DNA of 64,000 bases, from NCBI GenBank assembly GCA_905250055.1, contig CAJNOF010000002.1:5986240-6050239 (forward strand). Reading direction: 5' to 3'. The translations under genes were made by a program, and so were the position numbers. The notes beneath the pieces are model-generated. The model was given only the letters and a program-made list of their open reading frames with translations. It was not told the DNA's origin and ran no database searches. Below, in pieces: positions 18,862-61,491 of the stretch (positions are counted from its first letter, which is position 1; the number at the start of each line of letters is the position of its first letter). The stretch comes from Rotaria sp. (Eukaryota).

Positions 18862-20554
18862 ATGGCAAACGGTTGTGAATTTGAATTTATGGAATACATG
18901 GATGAGCAGTCCATTGATCCAAATTTAATATGCAGCATTTGTCATAAACCTCTTAAGGATCCAGTTTGTACATCATGTGATCATACATATGGTCGTGCAT
19001 GCATCACACGATGGCTCAATCAGAATGACATTGGTTCATGTCCTATGTGCCTTAAAAAGCCCTTGTCGATTAATGAACTCACTCAAGCTAGTCGTCCCTT
19101 ACGTAATATGCTTGATCAACTTCGAGTTCAGTGCCTATTATGTACACAAACTGGTTTACAACGTGGAAACTTTGTTGATCATATGAACAAGGTTTGTCCA
19201 AAATCTGTGATTCAATGTCAAGCTGCTGACATCAAATGTCCTTGGAAAGGACCACGTGATGAATTACAGAATCATATGATAGCATGTGTTTTTGAACCAT
19301 TGCGACCAGTATTATCTACACTAATTGCTGAAAACCGACAACTTATCGATCAAGTTCAAAAACATGATAATGAAATCAAGGCACTAGCACAAAAGATGTA
19401 TCAGTTACAAAAGAGTAAGTCAATATTTTTGTGAATCATTAAAGCAAACGTCTGGCATGTGAGATTGTTGTTTGTTTAGCAGAGAAAAATAAGTCCAGCG
19501 ATGAAAGTGATACTCAATCAGTTTCGGAAGTCTCCGTCGATGGTACAAATCAGAAAGAGGAAGATGCTATATACATAAGGAATCTACCTGCTACTGTCAA
19601 ATTTAATGATATATTTGATCAGTTTTCAAAAATTGGACGCATCAAGGTATAGTTATGGTTATTATATGTATATATAACAAGTTTTAGATTCTTACAATTT
19701 ATATCAAACATAGTCTAAAATGAGTGGACAGGATGCGAATAAACATGATTAAATTTTGAGATAGGTGGAGGATTAGTTCTGTTCATCTCGGTAACTGATG
19801 TTCATAAAGATGGATAAGATCATAACTGTTTTCACTTTCTGTTTTACGAATATCTTGATGTTTCTTTGTATTCAGCAAAAGATTTTGCACTAAATATAAT
19901 TATTTGTATTTGTTCAACTCGATGCAGAGAATTTATTCTCTCAAACTATTTGCTTGCAATTCGACGAGACATATATTACATCTGAAGAATAGTTGCATCA
20001 CTAAAATGGTTATGATATGATATTTGCTTATTACTTGGTACTTTGATATTTTTTAGTACAATCCGAACACTCAGAAAACCGAAATATTCATTTTTAAAAA
20101 TCCAACAAAGAAGAACGGCCTGTGCAGCGCAAAAGTAGTCTATGCTAACAAGGAATCGGCCGCTGCTGCAGTAGCGGAATACAATGGTATATAGTGTCTT
20201 GAATATATGTGGAGTAGTTCAGTATTCTTTTTTATGCATAGGTAAACATATTCCACAATGGAATACACGTCTTCAAGTAAATATATCATATGCAACGAGA
20301 AAGAATTTAAGCGATTGTGGAAAAGCCAATAATCGTAAATAGATATTATTAATCATATAAATAGTAGATTTTATTCTTATTTAGAAGGAAACATTCATGG
20401 GCATCAGGAAGCTAAAGTGATGGAAGAAAGCAAAGAAGTTTCAAACAAAGACAAAAAGGGTTCCGCCATGGTTGATCAATTAGAGCCACAAATCGAAGAT
20501 AATAAGGCAGAAACTAAGAAAAATACACGGTCTGTTAAATACTGCTACAGATGA
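18862..20554 (+). CDS. RING (C3HC4) plus TRAF-type zinc-finger plus RRM-domain protein, probable E3 ubiquitin ligase with an RNA-binding domain; 4 exons
   Basis: Exons: 18862-19414, 19480-19646, 20057-20186, 20385-20554 (TGA), all GT-AG with consistent phases. The RING is CSICHKPLKDPVCTSCDHTYGRACITRWLNQNDIGSCPMC. The TRAF-type zinc finger is CLLCTQTGLQRGNFVDHMNKVCPKSVIQCQAADIKCPWKGPRDELQNHMIAC. It is followed by a coiled-coil and an RRM with RNP2-like IYIRNL. Confidence 0.7.
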
Positions 20555-25512: not shown

Positions 25513-25917
25513 TTAGAGGTGACAGAAGTCGTCGGAAACATTACTCACTCTGAATCTCATGATGATATGAATTTCGCCATGGGATGACAATCCAAGCATT
25601 GCCGGTAATTTTACCCATTCATCATATTTTCCATCGTCGAAGACATGTTTCAGTTTAATTTTACACTTGCCAATTGAATCTTTGTCGCCAACATCGTCAT
25701 CGTAGACATCAAAATGAATGACATCGTCGCCGTCATGAATATTGAAAGTAAATCTTTCATTCCAAACGGGATCATTCGTATTGGAAATAGTTGTCGTCCG
25801 TTGTTTGTACTTTTTATCCAAATAGACTTCTACATAAGCATCGTTTTTACCAAATGTATCTTGATCTTTAAGACGACGTCCTTCTGCAACTACTACTTCG
25901 AGCGTACCGTTAGGCAT
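25513..25917 (-). CDS. Small single-exon C2-domain protein (134 aa), Ca2+/phospholipid-binding type
   Basis: Complete ORF MPNGTLEVVVAEGRRLKDQDTFGKNDAYVEVYLDKKYKQRTTTISNTNDPVWNERFTFNIHDGDDVIHFDVYDDDVGDKDSIGKCKIKL... This is the canonical C2 beta-sandwich signature, with Asp-rich Ca-binding loops. GC content is higher than the flanking sequence. Confidence 0.7.
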   Translation of the reverse strand: MPNGTLEVVVAEGRRLKDQDTFGKNDAYVEVYLDKKYKQRTTTISNTNDPVWNERFTFNIHDGDDVIHFDVYDDDVGDKDSIGKCKIKLKHVFDDGKYDEWVKLPAMLGLSSHGEIHIIMRFRVSNVSDDFCHL

Positions 25918-34751: not shown

Positions 34752-36650
34752 ATGTCTTCTAAGAGTTTATCAGCTCAGATGGGTCCTGTTTATCGTATTC
34801 CACCTTATTATTATATTCACGTATTAGATCAGAATACAAGTGTAACGCGATTGGAAATTGGTCCACAAAAGTTTTTTAAACAAGATAATGAGACAATAGT
34901 TTTTGGGCCCGATAAAATGATTACTCTACCACCCAGACATTATTGTGTTATTGAAAATCCCGTTGTTAAGAATGAAGATGATCAAGCACAATTCGACAAA
35001 AATGGTCAGGCAAAATTGTTGCATGGTAGCCAAGATGTTAGACTGGAAAATGATTATAAAGAACCATTTCCATTGTATCCTGGTGAAGTATTAAAACAGG
35101 TATTTGGAACACCTTTATTGAAAGTACAATTCAACAGTATCTGTTAATATTATTTCAGGCTGCTACACTTTTAAAATATGTTGCAGCTAATTCAGCATTA
35201 AGATTAAAAGCCGTTTTGGATTTTGACGATAACGGAGAACAGCGAAAAGCTGGAGATGAATGGCTATTCGAAGGACCAGGTAAAGTAACTATGCATTCAG
35301 TTATAATTCAGTCGGAAATTTGCTCGATTCATGATAAATATAAGTCATCTGTACAAATATGTTGATTTGTTAGGCACTTATATACCACGCAAAGAAGTAT
35401 CCGTTGAAGAACATATTGCAGCTACCGTGATTGGTCCAAATCAAGCACTAAGATTAAGTGCTAAAAAAGAACTTATCGATCGTATGGGTCAACGCCGTGT
35501 GGCGGGTGAAAATTGGTTAATAAAACAATTAGGTGCTTATTTACCGATGGCTTATGAAACGGTTGTGAGCATTGAAAATGCCTATGTTGTAACAGATAAA
35601 AAAGCATTACATTTGCGTGCACTGAAAACATTCATAGATGATTTTGGCCAAACAAGAAATAATGGTGACGAATGGCTCATCACAAAAGAACAAACAGAAA
35701 CACATATTTTGAATGTTTATGAACAACTCGTGACAATTGTTGATATAACAACATTCAATTCAAGACAATATTGTGTCATCGTAAATCCAGTTTCATGTAA
35801 GAATGTTAAATGTCAAACTATGATCGCAGTTATTATGATTTCTATTTTCTTTTCAAGGTGATGGTAAAAATCAATGGGGCAAGAAGAAATTAGTCGTTGG
35901 TGACAAATCATTTTTCTTGCAACCTAACGAACAATTAGAGAAAGGAATTCAAGATGTGTACGTGTTGTGTGAAGACGAAGGTATCATAGTAAAATGTATC
36001 GAATCGTTTGGTGATGAAATAGACAATGTGACTCGGGTGCCAGGTAAGAGAAAAGAATTTTATTATCCTTTTAGTGTAGAGAAATCATCTGCGGCTAGAT
36101 TCTAACTAGACAAGAATTAAATCTGTCTATTCTGTATGGGAACTATTTGCATCTTTTTAAGGTGACAAATGGGTGATAAGAGGACCAAGAGAATACATAC
36201 CACCGGTTCAAGTTGAAGTGTTACAAAAAAGAAAAGCGATACCTTTGGGTACGGTTCTTGATGTTTTATATCTTGTTTATTTATGTGATACTTATCTAGA
36301 TGAAAATGAAGGTATCTATGTTCGAGACTTGAAAACTGGCCGTGTTCGTGCGATTGTTGGTAATACATACATGTTAACACAAGATGAAGAACTGTGGGAA
36401 AAAGAATTACCACTAAGCATAGAAGAATTTCTTCAGCGAGATTCCTTAGTTGAAAGACGTGCCAAAACAACAGTAACATCATCGTTGCAAACGACAAAAC
36501 GTGACAAATCCAGATTAGTTACATATCGAGTACCCCAAAATCAAGCCGTCCAAATGTATGATTACAAAGCGAAAAGTTCAAGAATTATTTTTGGACCAGA
36601 ATTAGTCATGCTAGGACCAGATGAACACTTTACATACGTAAATCTCTCTG
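34752..36650 (+). CDS. MVP: Major vault protein, N-terminal about 520 aa (MVP repeat domains); 6 exons, 3' part of gene not found
   Basis: Exons 34752-35099, 35159-35279, 35374-35796, 35858-36043, 36162-36248, 36300 to about 36650. The translation is colinear with vertebrate MVP. For example [13 protein letters not shown] matches [13 protein letters not shown], and [66 protein letters not shown]...VEV...[35 protein letters not shown] and VQMYDY...S..IFGPELV.LGP are all shared. After FTYVNLSG the reading frame runs into hydrophobic junk and a stop at 36790. Confidence 0.9.
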
Positions 36651-39169
36651 GGTCTGTTCATGTTTCTTTATTTTTACTTACTTTTCTTTCTTTAGTTTTC
36701 GTGCTCAAAAAAGCTGTCAGCAACAAAAAAATATTCTTTTCTGCTATCCTTGTATTTGTGTTGTCCCTTATTTTACGTCGCTTTATTTAATAAACAAAAT
36801 AGAAAATGATTGAAGAAAGCTATCCATGAATAACAAAAGGCTTTTAGCAAACCTAGTCTACTTAGGTGCCGTGACACTTTGAACGAATTGAAAACATGCA
36901 TCTTAAAACTAACATACCCACAACACAAAAAGACGTTTCCTTCAAGATATCTACGCATGAATAGATGATCATGCATATTGGCATTATATTATGCTCTGAT
37001 TATCAGGAAAAACAATTATAATTTTTCGTTGAAATCAAACGAACTTTGATAAACTAATTGAGGATATCTTACATCATTTCTTAACATTTTTCATATACCA
37101 TACTTTATACGAGAGTGAGTACAAGTAAAGCAAATGATAATCTTGGTTTGTAATCATTTAAATGAAAAAAAAATAGAAAATTGAATATGATTGTGTGCTT
37201 TTAGAATAATGGAACGAAGCTAACACAAAAATACAAATATACAAGGTTCTCAATCATTGTCTCGATAATATCAACGAATGAAATATCGATGATAGCTGTG
37301 GATCAGGCTCGAGTACTATTGATTAGATCTTATGTAATGTAATTGCATACTTATCTTAAACAGATTTTTAGTTGTATATGAATGATGATATGAAATACAA
37401 TATACAATTCAATTAAAATACTAGTTTTAACCTCTATATGAATATGAAGTTACAATACTATGATTGTGAACAAAGATGTCTTTGACAATTCAAATAGTTG
37501 TACTGTTGTAATTTAGAATCATGATGAATTGTTGAATTCTCTATCTGTAAAAATAAAAAAAACCGTAGTGAATAATAAAACATACAATCTCCATAAATTG
37601 TCATTATATGTTCATGCATATTTTTTTGACAATTGTTCCTCTAGAACAAAGCAACTTTCTCAATGAGCAAGAATCAAGTCTTGAATTTCTAATCAATGCC
37701 TCGAAAATAGCCAAAAAACGTATTAGTAGACTATTGCTTTAGCCACTAATCGAATTAGATTTATGATATTGCTAGATAAAAAACCTATGTCTATTATTCA
37801 CGGGCCACAATACTGATACATTATTATTTATTGTAATGTTTTAAATTAAATCTGTCAAGAAATTTGTTGAATACCCTACATATTTTACGCCATGCTTTTA
37901 TTTGCATCTCTTATTTCGAATGTTTGAAACTTTATTAGTCATTTTTTTCTAATTCATCATACGATATTGTAAGCAAGTTGGTTTTTGTAAAGCTTTTACT
38001 TAGTACTAATTTTTGAGTGTTTAGATTGTTTACAGATGAGCCAAAAAACAACAGAAATATAGACATATATGTTTTGTTAATTCCATTGGTCAATAAGAAA
38101 AGGAGAACAAGTGATTTGCAAAGATTTCAATTATTGTACAAGTTTATATAATCGATGTGAAGTTCGCACAACCGAACAAGACCGTTCGTAAAATATTTTA
38201 CACTTAGGTTGTTGAAGTCGAGTAAGAATGAGAGTGCTTTGGTGCATGTTGCCAAATATCTTCACTCAGTTGTCGTTCTTGTAGATCTTTTAATACATCT
38301 AGCATTCCGAACTCATCTCAATTTGTCGTGTTCACTGTGCATCGAACTAAACGAATATTGCAACATAAATTGAATAGAACTCATAGATTGATATTTAACT
38401 CAAAACAGTAAAAGATGAACAATCAATATTTTAATAAAATTTTCAACAAATAAACCACGAAAAAAAATCCTTTTCCAGACCCTGTCACAGTTGTCATTTA
38501 ATCAATATAAACAGCGTAAATTGATCAAGTTATAACTTGAACAATAAATAATTCATGTTAGTTTTCTTCGAGTTGATCGAGATATCTATTAGTGCATTAA
38601 GATATGCAGCCATGGAAATAATACTTATTTACAACGACCTTATTTGCCATTTAATTCAATGCTTATAATGATAACAATGTTAAATTAAGAATATAATGAG
38701 CGAATAACAACAAAGCAAACAAAAAATTGGGCTTCCATAAAAAAAAAACAAGAAAAATTTCTGTTTGCAGTGCGGAAATATATTACACAAAACTTTACTT
38801 TGCTGATCGATTATCTTCAAACAGAACTCTAATAGATGAGAGATTTTTCAGTTCACCTGTTTTGTATGTATTACTTCAGATATCATAGACGAATGACTAG
38901 TTTATCATAAACAACCATAAGTGACTTAAATATATTCATGCATGACTAGATCATTAGTTAAAGTTCTATGTCGCAATAAATAAAAAACAATAATGATCAT
39001 AGTTCTCTATTTACATATGTCAAATTGAGTTTTTAAATAAGCATCGCAATTGTATGTACATAATGAAAATAAAGTGACATCACTTACGAGGAAACGATTC
39101 CAACTGTTCAATCGGTCTTTTTTCAAATATATAAATTTGTATGTGATTGAACTACATTGATTTCAAATA

Positions 39170-47230: not shown

Positions 47231-48082
47231 CTACTTTATAGATTACTAAAGAATCAGTTCGGTCATTAAAACATGATCATAAACCAAACGATACATGAAA
47301 AGCATTAGGAAGTGCATAAATTGATAGCACAAGTCCATCTTATTCACAACCAAGTGATATTAACGTTCAATTGAAGCCCATCATTTCTCATAATTATGGA
47401 AACAATGATTGTCATACATGAAATGAATTCAATATTATTTTAGACATGCTTTTTTCTTCAACTTTATATTCAAATCCGAATATATTTATAATAAAAGTTC
47501 AAAGATTAAATAACAAATATTTTAGCATGCAATCCTTATATGAAATCTGTACAAATAATTAGCTTCGGACAGCCGGAATACAGAGAAGCATTCTTTCGTA
47601 TTGAGTAGTTCTGCTTTCGTTATTTTTCCTAATTTATTGTCCCATGGACGCTCATTCTTCCGATTTTCATCCATTCAGCGCATGAGTTTCTTTGAGTATG
47701 TACACAACTCATACAAGCATTCAAATATTTGTTAATGGAAAGTATGTCTGTGCATGTCAATATTGAGAAAAAAATGTTGCCTAGGGTAGTAATAATACAG
47801 TTTAAAAACTCGATGAAATTTATCAAGGCATACATGAAAGTCACTAAAAACAGTAAAACCAACTTCATCTAAATGATGACCATGAGTCTCACATTAGAAT
47901 TGTCTTTAAGAATTTGAAAATAAAGAAAAGATGAATTTAATCATTGCAAGAAAATGAACTCGAATTACGATCATTATGTCGAGATATAAAAAAGAAAAAG
48001 ATGAACTTTTTTCAAATATTATTTTTTGATCTGTATTAGAACTCTTTTATGAAACCCACAATAGAAGAAAACGATCATATCT

Positions 48083-48598
48083 AACATTGATAAATACTCT
48101 TCTTTCACTTAACTTAATATAATAATTTACTTAACAAAAACAGAAACATAAAGCTAGTGATGTTTCGTATCTCGATAAGATGCTTCGTCAGACATTAACA
48201 CAAACATAAAGCACATAACTTAGCATACAACAATTTATACAAGTGGAAACATAGCAAACTAAGAACAAACAAACTAGGCTATTTTCTTCTTTTTCTATCA
48301 TTCTTTGATAGTCATACGGAAAAACAAGACGGAAACAGTGCCAGCTACAGAGGGAGTTAATCTTTTTCCGTATCACTATCAAACAATGACTGAAAAAGAA
48401 GAAAATAGCCTAGTTTGCTTGTTCTTAATTTGTTCTATTTCCACTTGTATAAATTGGTGTATGTTAAGTCATTTGTTTTATATTTGTGTTAATGTCTGAC
48501 GAAGTATCGTATCGAGACATGAAACATCACTAGCTTTTTGTTTTTGTTGAATAAATTATTATATTAAACCAAGTGAAAGAAGAGTATTTATCAATGTT
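48083..48598. repeat. Long imperfect palindrome / hairpin (about 516 bp, arms about 250 bp at about 80% identity, centre about 48341) flanked by 15-bp direct repeats AGAAGAAAACGATCA (48063-48077 and 48629-48643)
   Basis: The mirror ORFs at 48188-48382 (-) and 48305-48499 (+) encode near-identical peptides, which is diagnostic of an inverted repeat. Direct comparison of the arms confirms it. Confidence 0.8.
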
Positions 48599-51500
48599 GA
48601 ATATCAAATCAACCTTTTTAACAAGATAAGAAGAAAACGATCAATTTAATCTCTTTCGCCATTCAGTCCGATTCATCAACAGTACGTAATCACATTTTTC
48701 TCAACATATCAAGCAAAATTATAATAAAAAATGACTTGAGATGTTTTACTTTGAAATCATATCTGCTGGATTTTCTGTGGCAGATTTTCAAAATAATTTT
48801 CGGTATGTGTACTTTTCGATATTCCTTGAACATAATCTCATATTCATGTCCTCACCCTTACAATATCTGTTTTTTTCTCACTTGATTTAATCAAATATTT
48901 TACAACATCAGACAAATCAGTTATTTATTCTGATTTTCATTGTTACAAAATTTGATAATAACAAATTTATGTTTATCTCTTCTGTAATTACATCGTTCTT
49001 ACTTGTCTTTTTCATCTGTATCTTATCAGCACATGTACAGAATGAGAAAAAGGACCATACTTATGACAAAGAAAGAAAAAAAATTTATGGTTGAATGATA
49101 ACGATTTATTTTTCTTTTGAATGCAATTTATATCGCTTTTCGTCACCCGCGCTTCAAGCAGGCTTATGCACATACAAAGGATACGACTATTATATTGAAG
49201 TAAAAGGATAGACAGTGTTGATACAAGCTTCGTTGTGTTATTTATCTCATAAAAAAAATCATTATGATATAAGCTGTACAACGACAAAATAAGTAATCGC
49301 GTATAAAACGATTTGGTAATGAAAGAATGTCCTTGTTAATGAGTGATCATAATACAAAAAAGAAAAGGTAAAAAACAGTCGTGTATTAAAAAGGACAGTA
49401 AGTATTATGCTTTACAATTTTTTTATTTCATATTTGAAATTGAGAAAATTTAAACGAAATATGTGTTACTACTCTAAGCATTTGATCATGATTACCCAGA
49501 TCCATCAAAACGGATTCGTTTATAGCACGTTTTCAAAATATAAACATTGAAAAAATGATATGTGCATGTTTATTCTTCTCGTAAGCGAATCGTATAATGA
49601 CTGGCGATAATCCTATGAGTTTAAAAATACTTTGATAAAGTAGTTAAAGTTAAAGTAGCATCCTTCAATGTTAACTTTCGCATAATCAAAGTTGAAATAA
49701 AGATTTTCTCACAACAAAAAAGTTTCTTTTGTGGAAACATAAAACTCAAAACTTCGAGAAATCGATATCAGATTCGGACTCCACCTTTCCCACAAACTGT
49801 ATTGAAAAAACGTTTTTTTTCCTAAAAAAATCTCTACTTTAACTTAAAGTCAAGTTAAAGTGGCAACTCTAATGCTCAGTGTATACGATGTATCACAGCC
49901 ATTTAAGTCTATTAGTGAAATATTTGTAAAGAGGGTGTGTTTGTGCAGTTTTTGTTGCTCAAAATATTCGAAGTATACAATAAAGTAGTCGTTCACAAAC
50001 TGGGCTTACTTTGATGATATAGTTACATGGATACAATTAATTTTTAGTTGTAAGACACTATTTAGTATCGTACACTTAAAAGGAAACAGATGTTTCAGAA
50101 AATCTTAAAAAAAGGTTTCTACAATGGAAACAAAGTCGAAATCCTCTTTCAACTTCTTCTTCCAATAAATGTTTCCTAACCAATTTCACAATGAAAGTTA
50201 CAGCAAAGGATGGGTGTGATATGTTATTCTAGTCATGACAATCAGTCATATTAACATGTTTCCATAATACAAAACGAACTTTGCAATCTGATATGCCAGT
50301 GCATTCCAACAAAAAAATATTGCTAGACTATAGGAAGCTTTCAACTAAAACAGTACACTAAATGCACATATATACATCAGTTCACTAACAAAAACTCTGT
50401 TTCTCTCAGGATGATGCACAGTTTTTACATATTCAGCGCAAAGATAGTTCATGCTGCACATCCACTTTCACTGCTGGCAGTATACCACTGGTCAAAAATT
50501 GTCGAAATATATGAGTAAATATATTGATCGATGTAGTCGATAATGTAAAATAATGTCCATTATTTACATTATCGGCTACAATGGGTTATCTAAATAAATT
50601 ATTATTTTTTTCTTTTATTTAGATCCGTATAAACATTAACTAGGTAGCAAAATGATGAAGCAAAGAAGAACCAAAAATTGCTAATCATATTAACGATTCA
50701 TAGTCTTATGAATCTTGCAATAAATGCAAATCCACATAAGCAACATATTGGGTTAGTGAGTTTTGTTAATGAAAAGATTTCTTATTTTTTATACTTGTAC
50801 ATCGTAAGTTGTTCTTCAGTAAAACCTAACCTTGATTGAAATTTTTCTCAGAAACAGTCATATTCCTCTGAAAAATAACTTATGACATATACACATAAAA
50901 AATAAGATATTTTATTAATAAAACTCACTAAATCAATATGCTGCCCATGAGAATTTACATTTATTCTTAAATTCAAAAGACTATGGATCAGTAGGTTCGT
51001 ATCTTGATCCTACCGGTAATTGCATGGAACACTTGCGATATAATCGATAGTTTCCACATCGTTCGGGAAGTGGTTTCGTAAACAAAATTATGAAGTCTAA
51101 ATGCAGTAAAGAAGTATACAAACGTGACAGTAAAATGAAAGATAGATAGATATATGTATTAAGGACTTACATTTGTTGAGTTTCTGATTGGTAAATAGCT
51201 CTCTCTATGAGATATGACAGCTAAAAAAACAACAGCTCTGTGTGAAATCTGGAAGAATTATTTACAACATGTTTATGACTAGGAAACTTTCAGTAATATT
51301 TCTTGCAATTGTTCGATACTCTAAAGTTATGGCAACATTCCAAGACCTTCACAAGTTTTCTTAGAAACATTTTTTTCTTACAGTGTTTAGAATAATATAC
51401 GGTCATTTTTAAAATGAACGCTTCAATCTGGGATAAATTTTGGGGGAATAGATTCAGGAAATAAAAGTACGACTAGGTTTAGGGAAATCGAAGTATATAC

Positions 51501-53447: not shown

Positions 53448-54458
53448 TTGAAAATGCGGTACGATCTAAAATTCTTCATTACGGTTACTGTTGGAAGCCT
53501 ATTACTGATGATTTGGTGGCGGTTTTTTCTTGACTTACGACAGCCGTCGCCGAATTCTAAGTCCCTCGATAAGACACCTGGATTGTCAAAAGATTTGTCT
53601 ACTCTATCTAATGCAGCTGGCAAATCTTTACCAAAACCACGTCTGATCTTCAACACGTCTGCTCGTTATATTAATAACAGTTTAGAATGTTGGACTGATG
53701 ACGACTATTTGCACTGGAAACAAGGTGATTTTTATCCACCTGGTCAGTCAAATGGTTCAATTGCCTTTATGATCTTGACTGGTGATAGTAACTTACGTAC
53801 TCGCTGTGATGTCATTATGTGCACATTCGGCGTCACTATTCATCCATCACGACTCTTTTTCGTGGGTGAATCATCATCGGATAGACGAGTACCAATTTAT
53901 GATGTGGTTGCACCCGACACACCGAGACCAGTTAACATTTGGTGGAGCAAGCAAAAAGTCACTCGAGGTTTAGATGTTGTTATTAACATGATTAATAAAA
54001 TGGCTGACGGCACAGATATCAAGTGGCTTATGGTAATGGATGATGATACGTTTGTTTCTCCACCGAATTTAAGATTAGTTTTATCGGATTATGATCCTCA
54101 ACAACCGCTAATGATCGGAAACGCATGTGAAGATCGATTTTGTGGTGGTGGAGGCTATGTTTTTTCAAGAGCCTTATTCGAAAAATTCCCTCCATTCATT
54201 TTGTCGTGTTACCCAAACAAACCAGGTGGATATAGTGATATGGTTGTGCCTCGATGTATCACCGCTAAAACTGGAGTTCGACCGACCGATCGAAGAGAGT
54301 TCAATACTCAACCACCAGACCACTATACTACACGAGATGTATTAGCCGCTCGACCAAATGGATTCGGGAGAGCTGCTACTTTTCATTATCTGAGATTGCC
54401 AAAAAACTACCTAGACTTGTGGAGACTTCATCAAGCGTTTTACCGGGATGGAACATAA
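53448..54458 (+). CDS. Fringe-like / glycosyltransferase family 31 protein, type II membrane topology (336 aa), single exon
   Basis: The N-terminal TM segment is FFITVTVGSLLLMIWW. The DxD-type motif WLMVMDDDTFVSPPNL is followed by the GGGGYVFSRALF block typical of Fringe/C1GALT1/B3GLCT-like GT31 enzymes. The ORF is complete with a stop. Confidence 0.65.
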   Translation: MKMRYDLKFFITVTVGSLLLMIWWRFFLDLRQPSPNSKSLDKTPGLSKDLSTLSNAAGKSLPKPRLIFNTSARYINNSLECWTDDDYLHWKQGDFYPPGQSNGSIAFMILTGDSNLRTRCDVIMCTFGVTIHPSRLFFVGESSSDRRVPIYDVVAPDTPRPVNIWWSKQKVTRGLDVVINMINKMADGTDIKWLMVMDDDTFVSPPNLRLVLSDYDPQQPLMIGNACEDRFCGGGGYVFSRALFEKFPPFILSCYPNKPGGYSDMVVPRCITAKTGVRPTDRREFNTQPPDHYTTRDVLAARPNGFGRAATFHYLRLPKNYLDLWRLHQAFYRDGT

Positions 54459-56502: not shown

Positions 56503-57081
56503 TCATTGAATACGATGATTCTGACGATCGAAGGACAAACCTCGGGGAAAGTTGAACTGATTTGGTGATTTTCCTTGGCCATTTCCACCGACAACGACTG
56601 TGTTCTGTTTCGCTTTTGGAGGCCAATGAATCACTCGATTATTTGCAGAATCTGCCACATAGACGGTACCTAAAGCATCGACGAACAGCCCCTCAGGATA
56701 CGACAATTGTGTGAGCGATTTTTCTTCACCTTTACCTCCAGCGACGATAATCCCTTCTGTTGCACCTATATTCCATTTCATCACACGATGATTGCTGAAG
56801 TTTGACACGTAGACAGCTTCTTGTCAATCGACAAAGAGATATCCTGGTGCTTTGAGTTGATTGAGACGAGTTCCTTTACCATACCTACCAGCCACGAGAG
56901 TTCCATTCTTATCTCCTATTTCATATCGTCTTACTTCAACTTTGTCAGTATTAGAGATGTAGATATATCTCTGACCATCCGTAGCCAATCTAAAATACCC
57001 GATGTTGTCGAAGAGATTTTCTCCTTGAGTTGTGTTATTGAGACGAGACCATCGTAAGACTCGCTGATTATGCAAATCCAA
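56503..57081 (-). pseudogene. NHL-repeat (beta-propeller) coding fragment interrupted by an in-frame TGA; likely a pseudogene or gene fragment
   Basis: The two minus-strand ORFs 56824-57081 and 56503-56808 are in the same frame and are separated only by a TGA (plus-strand 56824-56826). NHL signatures are VYVADSANNRVIHW, IYISNTDKVEVRRY and VYVSNFSNHRVMKW. There is no in-frame ATG upstream of the first NHL ORF and it abuts a minisatellite. Confidence 0.55.
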
Positions 57082-57104: not shown

Positions 57105-57185
57105 CCCGAAATCTCTGGAAATCTCTGGAAATCTTTTGAAATCTTTAGAAATCTTTGGAAATCTTTAGAAACTTTTAAGAATCCT
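57105..57185. repeat. Minisatellite, about 8 copies of a 10-bp unit GAAATCT(C/T)TG
   Basis: The repeat reads GAAATCTCTGGAAATCTCTGGAAATCTTTTGAAATCTTTAGAAATCTTTGGAAATCTTTAG. Confidence 0.85.
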
Positions 57186-58908
57186 TTGGCCCTATAATGA
57201 CGCATGTTACACCAATAATACATCAGTGAACTATGGAGATTCAATGGAATTTGTATTGACCGACTTTCATATTATTGTACTGTTACCGTTATATCTCTAA
57301 TTTTTCTGCAAGAGAAAGAACCTTTTCAGCAAAGAAGGAGTACTTTTTTTTATAAAGGTTGTTGAGAATACTCAAGTAAGATTGGGTAAACATTGCATTG
57401 CAATACATGACAGATTAATTAGAAAGACCATAAAGTTTAAGACAGAAATAATTCTTTATAATAAAATGTTTTGTTTGATAGTTTTCATCAAGAATTCTTC
57501 TGCTATAGGTTGAATGATTCATTGTAATCAGCTAAATGTAACTCAACTGAATCATAGATTATAACTCATCTTTTTAGAAAATAAACATAAAATCATGAGT
57601 GATAAACCGTCAGTGGTGTTCCAAAGGAGTGTGATTGAAAAGCTGATCATGAATGTCAAACTTTCAACGAAGTAACTTAACACGTTTCGGTTTTGTAAAA
57701 AAAAATTGTCTACATATGGAACTCAATATGCAAAACTTAAAATTTTTTCTTTATGAACACGACGAACAATTTCAAAAAGTGCATGTGACACAAACTATCA
57801 CCCCCAGTAGAGACACTTATATTGTCAGTTAAGGAAATGAAACACGTTGGGTGCAGAGTGAAGGTCTCCCTACCAAACTTATAAATTTAAAACATTAGCT
57901 ACTGTTGCTGTGTGCCGACCATGATATTATAGTTTTACAATGTTAGCAGTATATATAGCATGATTAAAGCTCAAAGTTTCAGCAGATTCTTTAATTTTAT
58001 TTTTTTGATGAAAGGAAAGAGATGATGAGATGCTTTAGATAAATACGTATGTTTCATATTTAAAAAAGAGATTGTAAAAAATATCAAGGGAAAAATTTAT
58101 GTTAGCAGCAATGCCAAATATAAGGAAAATAGATCCGAAATTCTCACCTTGATATATTTTTCAAACTTTTTTCAAAAATATGGAGTCAATCTTTTAATGA
58201 TTCTACTCGAAAAGTTCTATTTAACCATTAAGAGAACAGAACAAGAGATCTTACTGAAATTTTTAGTTTTGAGCATCTTGCAAACACTAGAGACAGCTGA
58301 AAACTTGAACATCTTGATCGGTACACACTGACACGGTCTAGAATTTTAAACAGGCTAATTTAACGATAAGAACTTTGAATTTGATTCAAATGTGTTTAAC
58401 GACTCTATTTGTCAAATCATCCACAAAAGGTGATAAATACGAAAAGCAAATGATGGACAACTTGCTGGCAGAAATTATATTATCTAGGATAATACCACTT
58501 TACATAGAAGTAGATTTTTGACAAAAGGAATAGCTAAAAGTCAGCTGAACCTTCTTTTTATTCTTACGACCCTAATGCCAAATCTTTCTGCCATGGTTGA
58601 GATCTGTATCAAGCTTCACAAGTTTAAAGAAATAACTCTTTGCTTCAAATGAGGACCGTAAAATGTACCACACTATTATCAATAGCCAAACTACTTATCT
58701 TTCATTTAGTAAACGGTAGTCCAAATAGTATTAATCTAATAATGAGATCTTGTTTAGACGCCGAAAATTTGGACTTTAGATTCCAATTCACTACGGGCCA
58801 CTAAGTCTAGTTTGTTATAGTCTTGCCGGATGTATGTTTAATGTTATTAGAGTTCTGCGAAATGAAGAGTAAAAGAGGCATCGATTGACATCTATTCTTT
58901 TATATATA

Positions 58909-60161
58909 TCGGGTTGGTGCAAAAGTCTCCGCCGATTTTTTTCTTTTCAATGTTTCATGATTTTATTGAAACAAAATGTCACTAATCGAAAACATATATA
59001 CCATTATTGTCTATGACATACTCCCATCTTTTAGGCAAATCGAGAATGCCATCTTCAAAGAATTTCTTTGATAAAGACGAAAAGAAACTCTCGAGGTCCG
59101 ATTTTAGATGTAGTCGATCATCAAAATGCTTTTTCACCAGGTGATTGCGGAGCGACCGGAACAGATGATAATCAGAAGGTGCCAGATCTGGTGAATATGG
59201 TGGATGAGGTAAGACCTCCCTCCCTAATTCTTCCAGCTTCTGGCGAGAAACTTTTGAGATATGAGGTTTTGCATCATCGTGAAGCAATCGAACTTTTCGT
59301 CTTTCTGGACGATTTCCTTGTAGTGCAATTTTCAAATTCTCAAGTTGTTTGCAGTAAAGCTTCGAGTCGACCGTGGTATTAGGTAGTAGAAGTTCCCAGT
59401 AGATAATACCTTCGAAATCCCACCAGATCGGCAGCATAATTTTTTTCGAATGCAGGTCGTTTTTTGGTTCAGGTTCAGGCAAATCTTCAGGATTGACCCA
59501 TTGACGCTTGCGTGTATGGTTGACATACAGGATCCACTTTTCATTACCAGTGACAATCTGCTGAAGAAACTTGTGTCGGTTGCGTTTTGACAACAAAGAA
59601 TTGCATATGGTGATTCTTTGCTGTATATTGTCCGAGCTTAGTTGATGTGGAACCCATGTTTCAAGTTTACTAACTTTTCCGATTTCATGTAAATGCCGAT
59701 CGATGGTGAAGTGATCGCATAGAAGCATAGCTGATAATTCACTGGTAGTTAATCGTGGATTGTCTTCGATCAGGACTTTTAATTGTTCAATATCAATTTC
59801 CAGAGGACGTCCACACCTTGGCCGATCTTCCAATGACATATCACCTTCCCGAAATCTTTTAAACGAATCTCGACAAGTGCGATCAGCAACAACACGTTCA
59901 CCAAGTGCAGCACATATATTGTGCACAGCAGCACTTGCATTGTTCCCCAGTTGGAACTCATACAAAATGCAATGTCGAATATGAATAGAAATCTCTGACA
60001 TATTTTAATATGGAATGTAAAAAAAATCGGACATTCGTTAATGTCACATTATAGTACTACACAGGCGGTATCAAATGTGCAAAAACCACGCCTGTATAGT
60101 AGCGCTAGATGGCTTTAAAAGACTTTCAAAAAAATCGGCGGATACTTTTGCACCAACCCGA
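58909..60161 (-). mobile_element. Mariner-family (cecropia/Hsmar1-like) DNA transposon, 1253 bp, with 34-bp TIRs and TA target-site duplication; apparently intact
   Basis: The left TIR is 58909-58942, TCGGGTTGGTGCAAAAGTCTCCGCCGATTTTTTT. The right TIR is 60128-60161, its reverse complement with one mismatch. TA sits at 58907-58908 and 60162-60163. The TIR resembles Hsmar1 TTAGGTTGGTGCAAAAGTAATTGCGG. Confidence 0.9.
58982..60001 (-). CDS. Mariner transposase, full-length 339 aa, DD34D-type (HDDAKPH third-Asp motif, WVPHQL, YSPDLAPSDYHLF)
   Basis: Uninterrupted ORF colinear with Mos1/Hsmar1 transposases, including the HTH N-terminus, WVPH..L, GDEKWI, HDxAxPH and PYSPDLAPSDYHLF. Confidence 0.9.
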   Translation of the reverse strand: MSEISIHIRHCILYEFQLGNNASAAVHNICAALGERVVADRTCRDSFKRFREGDMSLEDRPRCGRPLEIDIEQLKVLIEDNPRLTTSELSAMLLCDHFTIDRHLHEIGKVSKLETWVPHQLSSDNIQQRITICNSLLSKRNRHKFLQQIVTGNEKWILYVNHTRKRQWVNPEDLPEPEPKNDLHSKKIMLPIWWDFEGIIYWELLLPNTTVDSKLYCKQLENLKIALQGNRPERRKVRLLHDDAKPHISKVSRQKLEELGREVLPHPPYSPDLAPSDYHLFRSLRNHLVKKHFDDRLHLKSDLESFFSSLSKKFFEDGILDLPKRWEYVIDNNGIYVFD

Positions 60162-60522
60162 TATATTAACAAAACCTCAAAAGTTTTATATTTCATGAAA
60201 AAAAGAGCTCAAAGAAATATTTTTGGAGTACTAAATCGATGAAATGTCCATCTTCATCAACTTGTATATTGTCTCATGCAGATTATAATTAGGTTTGGTT
60301 TTAGAAATAATTAGTAAAAAATTTAGACTTACTCGGAATTGCTGCATATACTCTGGTTCAGAAATACTCTCAATAGAATATGGACTTTGCAGAATTTCCA
60401 TCGCAGTTTTCATCTTAATGACGTAGTCATACTCAAGATTTAATCTCAGTATCAAGAAATATTTATGACTCTGGATGAAAGTGAGCATTAGTAAAACGAA
60501 ATTATCATTGCTAGACTTATGA

Positions 60523-61491
60523 TGCGGCCAACTATCCGACTGGTTTGAAGTCAAAAGCGGTGTTCGCCAAGGGTGCACAATTGCCCCGGATCTGTTTCTA
60601 GCACCAATGGACTGGCTGCTCCAACGAACCGTACACCGAGGGTTGCTCGGCGCTACACTGGGTAACGAAGTATTCACTGATTTGGACTTTGCGGATGATG
60701 TAGCACTTCTAGCCGAGACTGTGGAAGCAATTCTGCTGGCATTGGAGGTCATGCAGCACGAAGCTCGCCCGCTTGGCTTAGAAATCAACTGGCCAAAGAC
60801 AAAAATTCAAGAAACCAGAAGCGAAACGACTAACAACAACGCACTATCTGTGGGCAGCCACAATGTGGAAGTGGTCGACTCATTCGTCTACTTAGGTTGC
60901 ACGATTAACAAAACAGGCAGCAGCATACCAGAAATCACCAGAAGGATTGCAATCGCTCGAAACTGCATGAAGACCCTGGACAAATCCATCTGGCGCTCAA
61001 GCATAGCGTTACAGACCAAAATTCGTCTTTACAACTGCTATATATTACCAGTTCTTCTGTACGGCGCGGAGACCTGGACAATAACTGGCTCGGTCGAGAA
61101 AAAATTAGATGCTTTCGACAACTGGTGCCTTAGACGAATTCTCCACATACCATATACGAAACACATCACGAACAAAGAAGTTCGTGAACGCACCGGCCAA
61201 CCTGAAATTAGCACAACTATCAAAACTAGACGACTACGACAATTCGGACATATAGCCAGGGGCAACCCCCTCTCCGACCATACCAGAGCATTGCAAGCAA
61301 ATATTAATGGGCCACTAAGTGGATGGAAACGCCCTCGTGGCAGACCACGCCACACGTGGATCCGCTCCGTCGAAGACGACCTACGTCCATTCAATCTAGG
61401 TCTTTTCTCCGCCTGGAAAAATGCTCAAGACAGGCAAAAATGGCGTAGTCTTGTAACGAAAGCAACGTCCAGTAGGATACGCTACAGATGA
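60523..61491 (+). CDS. 5'-truncated non-LTR retrotransposon (RTE-like LINE) reverse transcriptase, C-terminal RT domains
   Basis: The frame opens after a TGA at 60520. The RT motifs are FEVKSGVRQGCTIAPDLFL, FADDVALL (the YADD box), LEINWPKTKI and YLGCTIN. GC content is much higher than the host. The antisense ORFs at 60231-60788 and 61038-61394 are spurious. Confidence 0.8.
   Translation, partial: CGQLSDWFEVKSGVRQGCTIAPDLFLAPMDWLLQRTVHRGLLGATLGNEVFTDLDFADDVALLAETVEAILLALEVMQHEARPLGLEINWPKTKIQETRSETTNNNALSVGSHNVEVVDSFVYLGCTINKTGSSIPEITRRIAIARNCMKTLDKSIWRSSIALQTKIRLYNCYILPVLLYGAETWTITGSVEKKLDAFDNWCLRRILHIPYTKHITNKEVRERTGQPEISTTIKTRRLRQFGHIARGNPLSDHTRALQANINGPLSGWKRPRGRPRHTWIRSVEDDLRPFNLGLFSAWKNAQDRQKWRSLVTKATSSRIRYR

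Follow-up and report, generated by a model that had tools for sequence, protein, structure and literature searches.

The described systems that come closest to the element reported here, a mariner-family transposon in a 64-kb genomic stretch from a bdelloid rotifer, Rotaria sp. 'Silwood-1' (contig CAJNOF010000002.1 of GCA_905250055.1, positions 5,986,240 to 6,050,239; this whole stretch of 64,000 nucleotides is referred to as the window), are two mariner transposases with solved structures. Mos1 of Drosophila mauritiana (mauritiana subfamily) is structurally characterised and active; the side chains of three Asp residues coordinate its catalytic metal ions, and D156 and D249 hold Mg2+ in the strand-transfer complex (PMC5481204). 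In Hsmar1, a human element of the cecropia subfamily, the triad begins with D155, and the D155A mutant is without catalytic activity (PMC5714172). The transposase domain of SETMAR (Metnase) is a domesticated derivative of Hsmar1, has Asn at the third triad position (Asp-Asp-Asn, DDN) and retains some nuclease activity (PMC4036204). A bdelloid mariner has been described earlier, Avmar1 of Adineta vaga, which has intact open reading frames (ORFs) and is listed under the elegans subfamily (PMC4161770).

The window contains a single copy of the Rotaria element, which is a full-length cut-and-paste DNA transposon of the Tc1/mariner (DD34D) type located at a TA site. It shares with Mos1 a TA target duplication, short terminal inverted repeats (TIRs), a transposase of ~340 amino acids (aa) and collinear motif boxes; it differs in having N153 where Mos1 has D156, and in the 4-residue insertion that precedes HDNA in Mos1. 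Hsmar1/SETMAR is the better match of the two solved references, and the helix-turn-helix (HTH) domain, WVPH(E/Q)L linker and DD34D catalytic domain of SETMAR all have counterparts in the window copy. SETMAR has its Asp to Asn replacement at the third triad position, whereas in the window copy it is at the first; the window copy also lacks a host-gene fusion and any sign of purifying selection, and its host is a rotifer. It is very probably a young, structurally complete and non-autonomous mariner copy, whose transposase would be unable to catalyse cleavage or strand transfer. The initial annotation had put it forward as a candidate active copy and had named the loss of a catalytic Asp as what would speak against this. 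Alignment revealed that loss in the first of the three triad residues, which makes this an ordinary copy in recent decay and not a candidate for activity.

Loss of the first catalytic aspartate

The ORF was aligned to the solved structures of Mos1 transposase and of the SETMAR catalytic domain. The match to Mos1 is end to end (residues 9-336, E = 7e-73), and that to the SETMAR catalytic domain has E = 2e-59. In these alignments IVTGNEKWILY of the window copy faces IVTGDEKWIFF of Mos1, which contains D156, and IVTCDEKWILY of SETMAR. The first catalytic Asp is thus replaced by Asn153 (TGNEKW), through a single GAT to AAT transition at 59543-59545. Column 153 is Asp in all 24 relatives of a 25-sequence protein alignment, and the codon is GAT in all eight DNA relatives. 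Among 113 homologues with a locatable motif, from 120 listed, the first-Asp column holds 111 D, 2 Y and no N.

The other two members of the triad are kept. D242, within HDDAKPH, faces Mos1 D249, and D277, within PSDYHLF, faces Mos1 D284; 34 residues lie between them, so that the DD34D spacing is preserved. HDDAKPH had been taken for the third-Asp box, and the alignment makes it the second. It also deviates from the invariant HDNA, through N243D. The motifs WVPHQL and YSPDLAPSDYHLF were both found in the ORF, as had been reported, but the wider statement that all hallmark motifs are kept does not hold for a protein with Asn153 and with HDDA in place of HDNA. The full set of three catalytic Asp residues is not present in the window copy, and its membership of the family by descent is unaffected. 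By analogy with the biochemistry of Mos1 and Hsmar1, the transposase is most likely catalytically dead.

Structure of the element

The features of the element, in window coordinates, are as follows.

58907-58908, no strand: TA target-site duplication, left on the plus strand, which is the 3' side in transposase orientation; read directly
58909-58942, minus strand: 3' TIR (TCGGGTTGGTGCAAAAGTCTCCGCCGATTTTTTT read inward), an inverted repeat with boundaries from alignment with relatives
58962-58967, minus strand: AATAAA hexamer resembling a poly(A) signal, of putative function, in the 3' untranslated region (UTR) 15 nt past the stop codon; kept in eight of nine aligned elements, including the window copy
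58982-60001, minus strand: uninterrupted 339-aa transposase ORF, ATG at 60001-59999 and TAG at 58984-58982
59171-59173, minus strand: codon 277, the third catalytic Asp (Mos1 D284), in YSPDLAPSDYHLF, kept, 34 residues past D242
59273-59278, minus strand: codons 242-243, the second catalytic Asp D242 (GAT), kept, then the private N243D (HDNA to HDDA), from the alignments
59291-59530, minus strand: Pfam Transposase_1 (partial DDE domain), aa 158-237
59543-59545, minus strand: codon 153, AAT (Asn), which aligns with the first catalytic Asp (Mos1 D156, Hsmar1 D155); GAT in relatives
59840-59986, minus strand: N-terminal HTH DNA-binding domain (Pfam HTH_48, aa 6-54), which holds the private W46S (59864-59866)
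60002-60127, minus strand: 5' UTR, from the 5' TIR to the ATG, by alignment with relatives
60128-60161, minus strand: 5' TIR (TCGGGTTGGTGCAAAAGTATCCGCCGATTTTTTT read inward), from the inverted repeat and alignment with relatives
60162-60163, no strand: TA target-site duplication, right on the plus strand; read directly

The element spans 58909-60161 (1253 bp) on the minus strand, its ends having been trimmed by alignment with eight related elements. Read on the plus strand, its termini run TA (58907-58908), TCGGGTTGGTGCAAAAGTCTCCGCCGATTTTTTT (58909-58942), the interior, AAAAAAATCGGCGGATACTTTTGCACCAACCCGA (60128-60161) and TA (60162-60163). A repeat finder returned longer arms, 58904-58942 and 60128-60166 (39 nt, 97% complementary); the extra 5 nt are a palindromic TA-rich flank outside the 34-nt TIRs. 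The TIRs differ only at position 19, which is A in the 5' repeat and C in the 3' repeat. Their 15-nt core occurs twice in the window, both times in the TIRs of the element, where 0.06 occurrences would be expected by chance. TA is also found on both sides of all eight related elements, although in the window copy the TA flank alone carries little weight because the local context is TA-rich (ATATA). The transposase ORF is the only long ORF of the element, is gap-free against relatives of 339 aa and contains the Pfam domains HTH_48 (8e-20) and Transposase_1 (1.6e-27). A TA duplication, 34-nt TIRs on an element of 1253 bp, and a single 339-aa transposase with HTH and DDE/D domains and D,D(34)D spacing agree with the features of the mariner family, in which TIRs of ~28-35 bp bound an element of ~1.3 kb and one transposase of ~340 aa combines an N-terminal paired HTH domain with a C-terminal DDE/D domain. 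Up to this point the initial annotation was accurate: the flanking TA duplication and the 34-bp TIRs with one mismatch can be seen directly at the coordinates that it gave, and the 339-aa ORF runs from ATG to TAG with neither frameshift nor stop.

This architecture is also what might be expected of an autonomous mariner that is, or recently was, mobilised by its own transposase. The complete TIRs with their one mismatch, the TA duplication, the uninterrupted collinear ORF, the retained second and third Asp and YSPDLAPSDYHLF box and the conserved AATAAA are all in keeping with such an element, as is the recent activity that is general among bdelloid transposable elements (TEs) (PMC7943196). An open frame and near-perfect ends are, however, no proof of transposon activity, and the catalytic residues need to be checked against a solved reference. 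Here the first catalytic Asp is Asn, and the equivalent Hsmar1 mutant, D155A, is inactive. The copy is very unlikely to be an autonomous one, and the comparisons with its relatives bear further on this.

Private substitutions and constraint

The whole-element DNA alignment comprised the window copy and L001, L002, L011, L012, L019, L020, L021 and L023. At conserved residues the window copy has six private replacements, W46S, R87S, D153N, S191P, N243D and W261R. W46S and R87S lie in the DNA-binding domain, and S191P, N243D (beside the second Asp) and W261R in the catalytic domain; all five of these positions are invariant or nearly so in the 24 aligned relatives and identical in the eight DNA relatives. 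A 90% threshold for lone deviations in the 25-sequence alignment does not discriminate, as distant lineages deviate equally often; the informative analyses are a threshold of 100% invariance and the DNA comparison within the close clade. In columns invariant in the 24 other sequences, three private changes (R87S, D153N and N243D) were found in the window copy and from none to one in its clade mates P0001-P0006. The five replacements that accompany D153N also argue against an active copy.

Pairwise ratios of nonsynonymous (N) to synonymous (S) divergence (dN/dS) across the family are 0.07-0.18, indicating that the family as a whole is under strong purifying selection. The private changes of the window copy have another pattern. 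At sites identical in six relatives there are 34 of these, spread over the codon positions 12:10:12, with 23 nonsynonymous and 11 synonymous; pooling five intact relatives gives 34:22:58 and 52N:62S, and the N:S proportions differ from those of the window copy (Fisher p = 0.031). The private-change rate of the window copy does not differ between coding (0.061) and noncoding (0.050) sequence. It is also no different from the 0.059 of the clearly dead Rotaria socialis copy L019, which when read in the frame of the window copy has 15 in-frame stops and 37 gap columns. In three of the four intact relatives (L001, L002 and L020) the rate is lower in coding (0.024-0.042) than in noncoding sequence (0.050-0.089). 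In a relative-rate test against L001, synonymous changes were balanced at 31:31 with one outgroup and 12:16 with four outgroups; at positions conserved in four outgroups there were 24 nonsynonymous changes in the window copy and 9 in L001 (p = 0.0135). This substitution pattern points, with moderate strength, to relaxed constraint, and changes that look unconstrained by codon position and by N:S are a further argument against an element propagated by its own transposase.

The nonsynonymous excess of ~12-14 would correspond to ~16-19 neutral substitutions in 1020 bp, or ~1.5-2%, and the single mismatch among 68 TIR nucleotides is in line with decay of ~1.5%. About 5% of random substitutions in the ORF would yield a stop, so the absence of stops after so many substitutions would be unremarkable, with the absence of indels somewhat lucky. 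The lineage may therefore be pictured as having been under purifying selection through most of its history, followed by a short unconstrained phase, its length estimated from the ~1.5-2% change, in which no stop or frameshift has so far arisen. D153N, a single GAT to AAT transition, together with the further private replacements, would have inactivated the transposase. The nearly perfect TIRs could still be recognised in trans, provided that the genome also encodes a working transposase of this sublineage.

An intact frame that persists despite private divergence could alternatively belong to a selected gene, with the dead transposase retained as a dominant-negative 'poison subunit' or TIR-binding repressor of its own family, or as a domesticated DNA-binding protein in the manner of the SETMAR domain. 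The inactivating change in the triad is a conservative D to N replacement, as in SETMAR, and Hsmar1 dimers with one D155A subunit assemble and stall at nicked intermediates (PMC5714172), so that a dead subunit could interfere with a live one. Yet the private changes are even over the codon positions and 2:1 nonsynonymous, which is the opposite of purifying selection, and W46S and R87S alter residues of the DNA-binding domain that a TIR-binding regulator should keep. The TIRs and target-site duplication are also still in place, a truncated fragment of a long interspersed nuclear element (LINE) lies adjacent, and the product is not called as a gene in the protein collection searched. Retention under selection is accordingly regarded as very improbable. 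Much the same low probability is given to a dominant-negative brake, in which the intact Asn-Asp-Asp (NDD) ORF would be expressed and its product would dimerise with a functional transposase of the same lineage or compete with it for TIRs. If this were true, the NDD protein would be a natural mariner brake in an anciently asexual animal, and such self-limitation of a TE would be of theoretical interest.

Several points weigh against a dead and recently decayed copy. The inactive mutant cited is D155A, and no activity assay of a D to N change exists for the first triad position of a mariner; SETMAR, with its DDN triad, keeps some nuclease activity, and complete loss of all chemistry is therefore an inference. 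The contrast in rates is not uniform, as the intact relative L012 has a coding rate of 0.043 and a noncoding rate of 0.042. With a single outgroup the nonsynonymous excess (35 versus 23) is not significant (p = 0.15), and for this reason the signal of relaxed constraint is only moderate. For an ORF with 1.5-2% neutral change, to be free of both indels and stops would take some luck (~5% by rough estimate). Both TIRs carry the lineage-specific changes T2C and A10G relative to the family consensus TTGGGTTGATGC…, which shows descent of the window copy from a separate sublineage, and some of its private changes may be older than the insertion. Finally, the base call at codon 153 comes from one 10x assembly, in which the two pseudohaplotypes are collapsed at the element.

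This last point raises the question of whether D153N arose in sequencing or assembly, with Asp encoded by the true copy. The call depends on a single linked-read assembly, and its pseudohaplotype contigs, identical beyond ~50 kb, are not independent of each other. Consensus errors are rare in an Illumina-based assembly, however, and a further 22 nonsynonymous changes are private to the copy, N243D, W261R, S191P, W46S and R87S among them, because of which the conclusion that the copy is dead does not depend on base 59545. An erroneous base is considered the faintest of the possibilities raised here.

Relatives in bdelloids and environmental metagenomes

The same element family is represented by an uncharacterised mariner lineage from bdelloids and environmental metagenomes (P0001-P0006, L001, L002/L011, L012/L021 and L019). 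Its members have 77-84% DNA identity to the window copy over the whole element, TIRs and UTRs included, and 76-82% protein identity, and like it have an ORF of 339 aa and TA duplications. The nearest DNA relatives are L001, from an assembly of the European Nucleotide Archive (ENA), at 84.1%, with synonymous divergence (dS) of ~0.5, and the R. socialis pseudocopy L019, at 83.5%. The relatives keep the first triad D and the other invariant residues, and some are 99.9-100% identical at different sites; the window copy differs from them in its private T2C and A10G on both ends and in the inactivating substitutions.

L002 and L011, from different samples and with different flanks, are identical except for one indel in a run of T, and the identity between L012 and L021 is 99.9%. 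Six contigs, from as many samples, encode the P0001 protein without any change, and the 90%-identity protein clusters of P0002 and P0003, whose representatives come from ENA assemblies, have 714 and 732 member sequences. These sister lineages, which have an intact DDD triad, are clearly mobile elsewhere and have been so recently, and the identical elements at different sites (L002/L011 and L012/L021) count towards activity of the window copy also. Set against this, the window has no second copy, and the best of 1491 homologues in a collection of 5.8 billion proteins is 82% identical. A look-up of the exact protein returned no gene with an identical product on record, and a scan of metagenome DNA for closer or broken copies gave none above 82%.

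The contig of L001 also contains a fragment of a piggyBac-type transposase (DDE_Tnp_1_7) at 178-702 on the minus strand, ~2.1 kb upstream of the mariner.

Subfamily and horizontal transfer

The subfamily was considered by comparison with two reference transposases, Hsmar1-derived SETMAR and Mos1. Identity of the ORF to the SETMAR transposase is 41.4% (44.9% for the clade consensus) and to Mos1 38.3% (41.3% for the clade consensus); between Hsmar1 and Mos1 themselves it is 35.8%. A published criterion places an element in a subfamily at ≥40% amino-acid identity to its members (PMC4161770), and given these two pairs of values it does not discriminate here. The DNA-binding domain scores 82.5 bits with Hsmar1 and 53 with Mos1. 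The 15-nt TIR core GGTTGGTGCAAAAGT recurs without change in the published Hsmar1 end TTAGGTTGGTGCAAAAGTAATTGCGGTTTT, with an overall match of 22-23/30. By hand count the window TIRs have 4 and 5 mismatches to the 19-nt core bound by SETMAR, and the family-consensus TIR (TTGGGTTGATGC...) has one fewer match than the window copy in the 15-nt Hsmar1 core. The TIR of Mos1 is not known to share this core.

The assignment as cecropia-type made in the initial annotation is thus plausible and a reasonable lead, weakly supported by the identity to the Hsmar1-derived protein and the leaning of the DNA-binding domain; with Mos1 at 38.3%, membership is not established. The accompanying description of the TIR as very close to Hsmar1 is true of the 15-nt core and too strong for the TIR as a whole. 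Avmar1 was set beside the window element by description only. Both are bdelloid mariner-family elements, and the elegans listing suggests that Avmar1 is a different lineage, if the window element really is cecropia-like.

Nothing was found in favour of recent horizontal transfer, the nearest sampled relatives having 84% DNA identity and dS of ~0.5, and a scan of viral contigs for transfer vectors found no relatives of the element.

Genomic context

The window has a GC content of ~31% and is identical to contig CAJNOP010000018.1 of GCA_905250075.1, one of the 10x linked-read assemblies of Nowell et al. 2021 (PMC7943196). In bdelloid genomes DNA transposons make up ~2.5%, low-divergence copies occur in all TE superfamilies, and insertion sites are polymorphic (PMC7943196); an intact-looking DNA transposon in Rotaria sp. 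'Silwood-1' fits this published picture. The stretch around the mariner is intergenic and bears TEs; on one side lies an NHL-repeat exon (56506-56823, minus strand), on the other a fragment of a reverse transcriptase (RT) of the type without long terminal repeats (non-LTR; 60523-61488). This fragment, on the plus strand and 360 bp from the mariner, is 5'-truncated and has an RVT_1 match (4.7e-10) and a FADDVALL box. Local GC is ~0.40 at the RT fragment and ~0.31 in the rest of the window.

The two pseudohaplotype contigs of the assembly, of which L009 is the second, differ only at 43-49 kb and are identical beyond; L009 is uninformative on an empty site because the region is collapsed or homozygous. 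In the wild individual RSIL806 (L010), similarity ends at window position 57112, which lies 1.8 kb upstream of the element and coincides exactly with a scaffold join, a single N, within a 10-bp tandem repeat. Absence of the mariner from RSIL806 is not supported by this, as similarity stops at an assembly gap at the single-N join. The tandem repeat, GAAATCTTTG, is present as 6.9 copies at 57108-57175 and recurs at L008 20900-20951, ~400 bp past the window end. A TE-bearing segment of ~7.3 kb, comprising the mariner and the RT block, is bracketed by this minisatellite, and in RSIL806 the N join is followed by unrelated sequence.

A long palindrome of ~530 bp (48077-48604) has arms at 48139-48324 and 48363-48548 (186 nt, 89% complementary) and an additional outer pair of 70 nt. 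It is located where the pseudohaplotype contigs differ most, and could be a foldback element or one resembling a miniature inverted-repeat transposable element (MITE).

A Fringe-type glycosyltransferase ORF (53448-54458, plus strand), 100% identical to a Rotaria sp. Silwood1 protein, is single in the window and is represented three times in RaGOO-scaffolded RSIL806 (L010 2545-3549, 10001-11005 and 12208-12897), with DNA identities to the window gene of 97%, 90% and 98%. This may be either a tandem difference in copy number or the result of homoeologous contigs mis-placed by reference-guided scaffolding. The other host genes include the exons of a major vault protein (34752-36790, plus strand; Vault, Vault_2, Vault_3 and Vault_4), a RING/TRAF zinc-finger ORF (18862-19434, plus strand) and a C2-domain ORF (25513-25917, minus strand); these and the NHL-repeat exon mentioned above (56506-56823, minus strand) are all ordinary. 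An Rfam scan of the window gave no matches. Counts from a scan for bacterial promoters and terminators, which have no bearing on a eukaryotic host, stood at shuffle level and were set aside.

Significance

Elements of this kind are well known, and the TEs of the host genome have been surveyed before; the window copy adds one member and has little import beyond annotation. For an active element, or for a tool for rotifer transgenesis, the relatives with an intact D153 (e.g. P0001 and P0002) are far better candidates. For bdelloid biology, the copy is a further data point on a mariner lineage found widely, both in Rotaria and in environmental samples.

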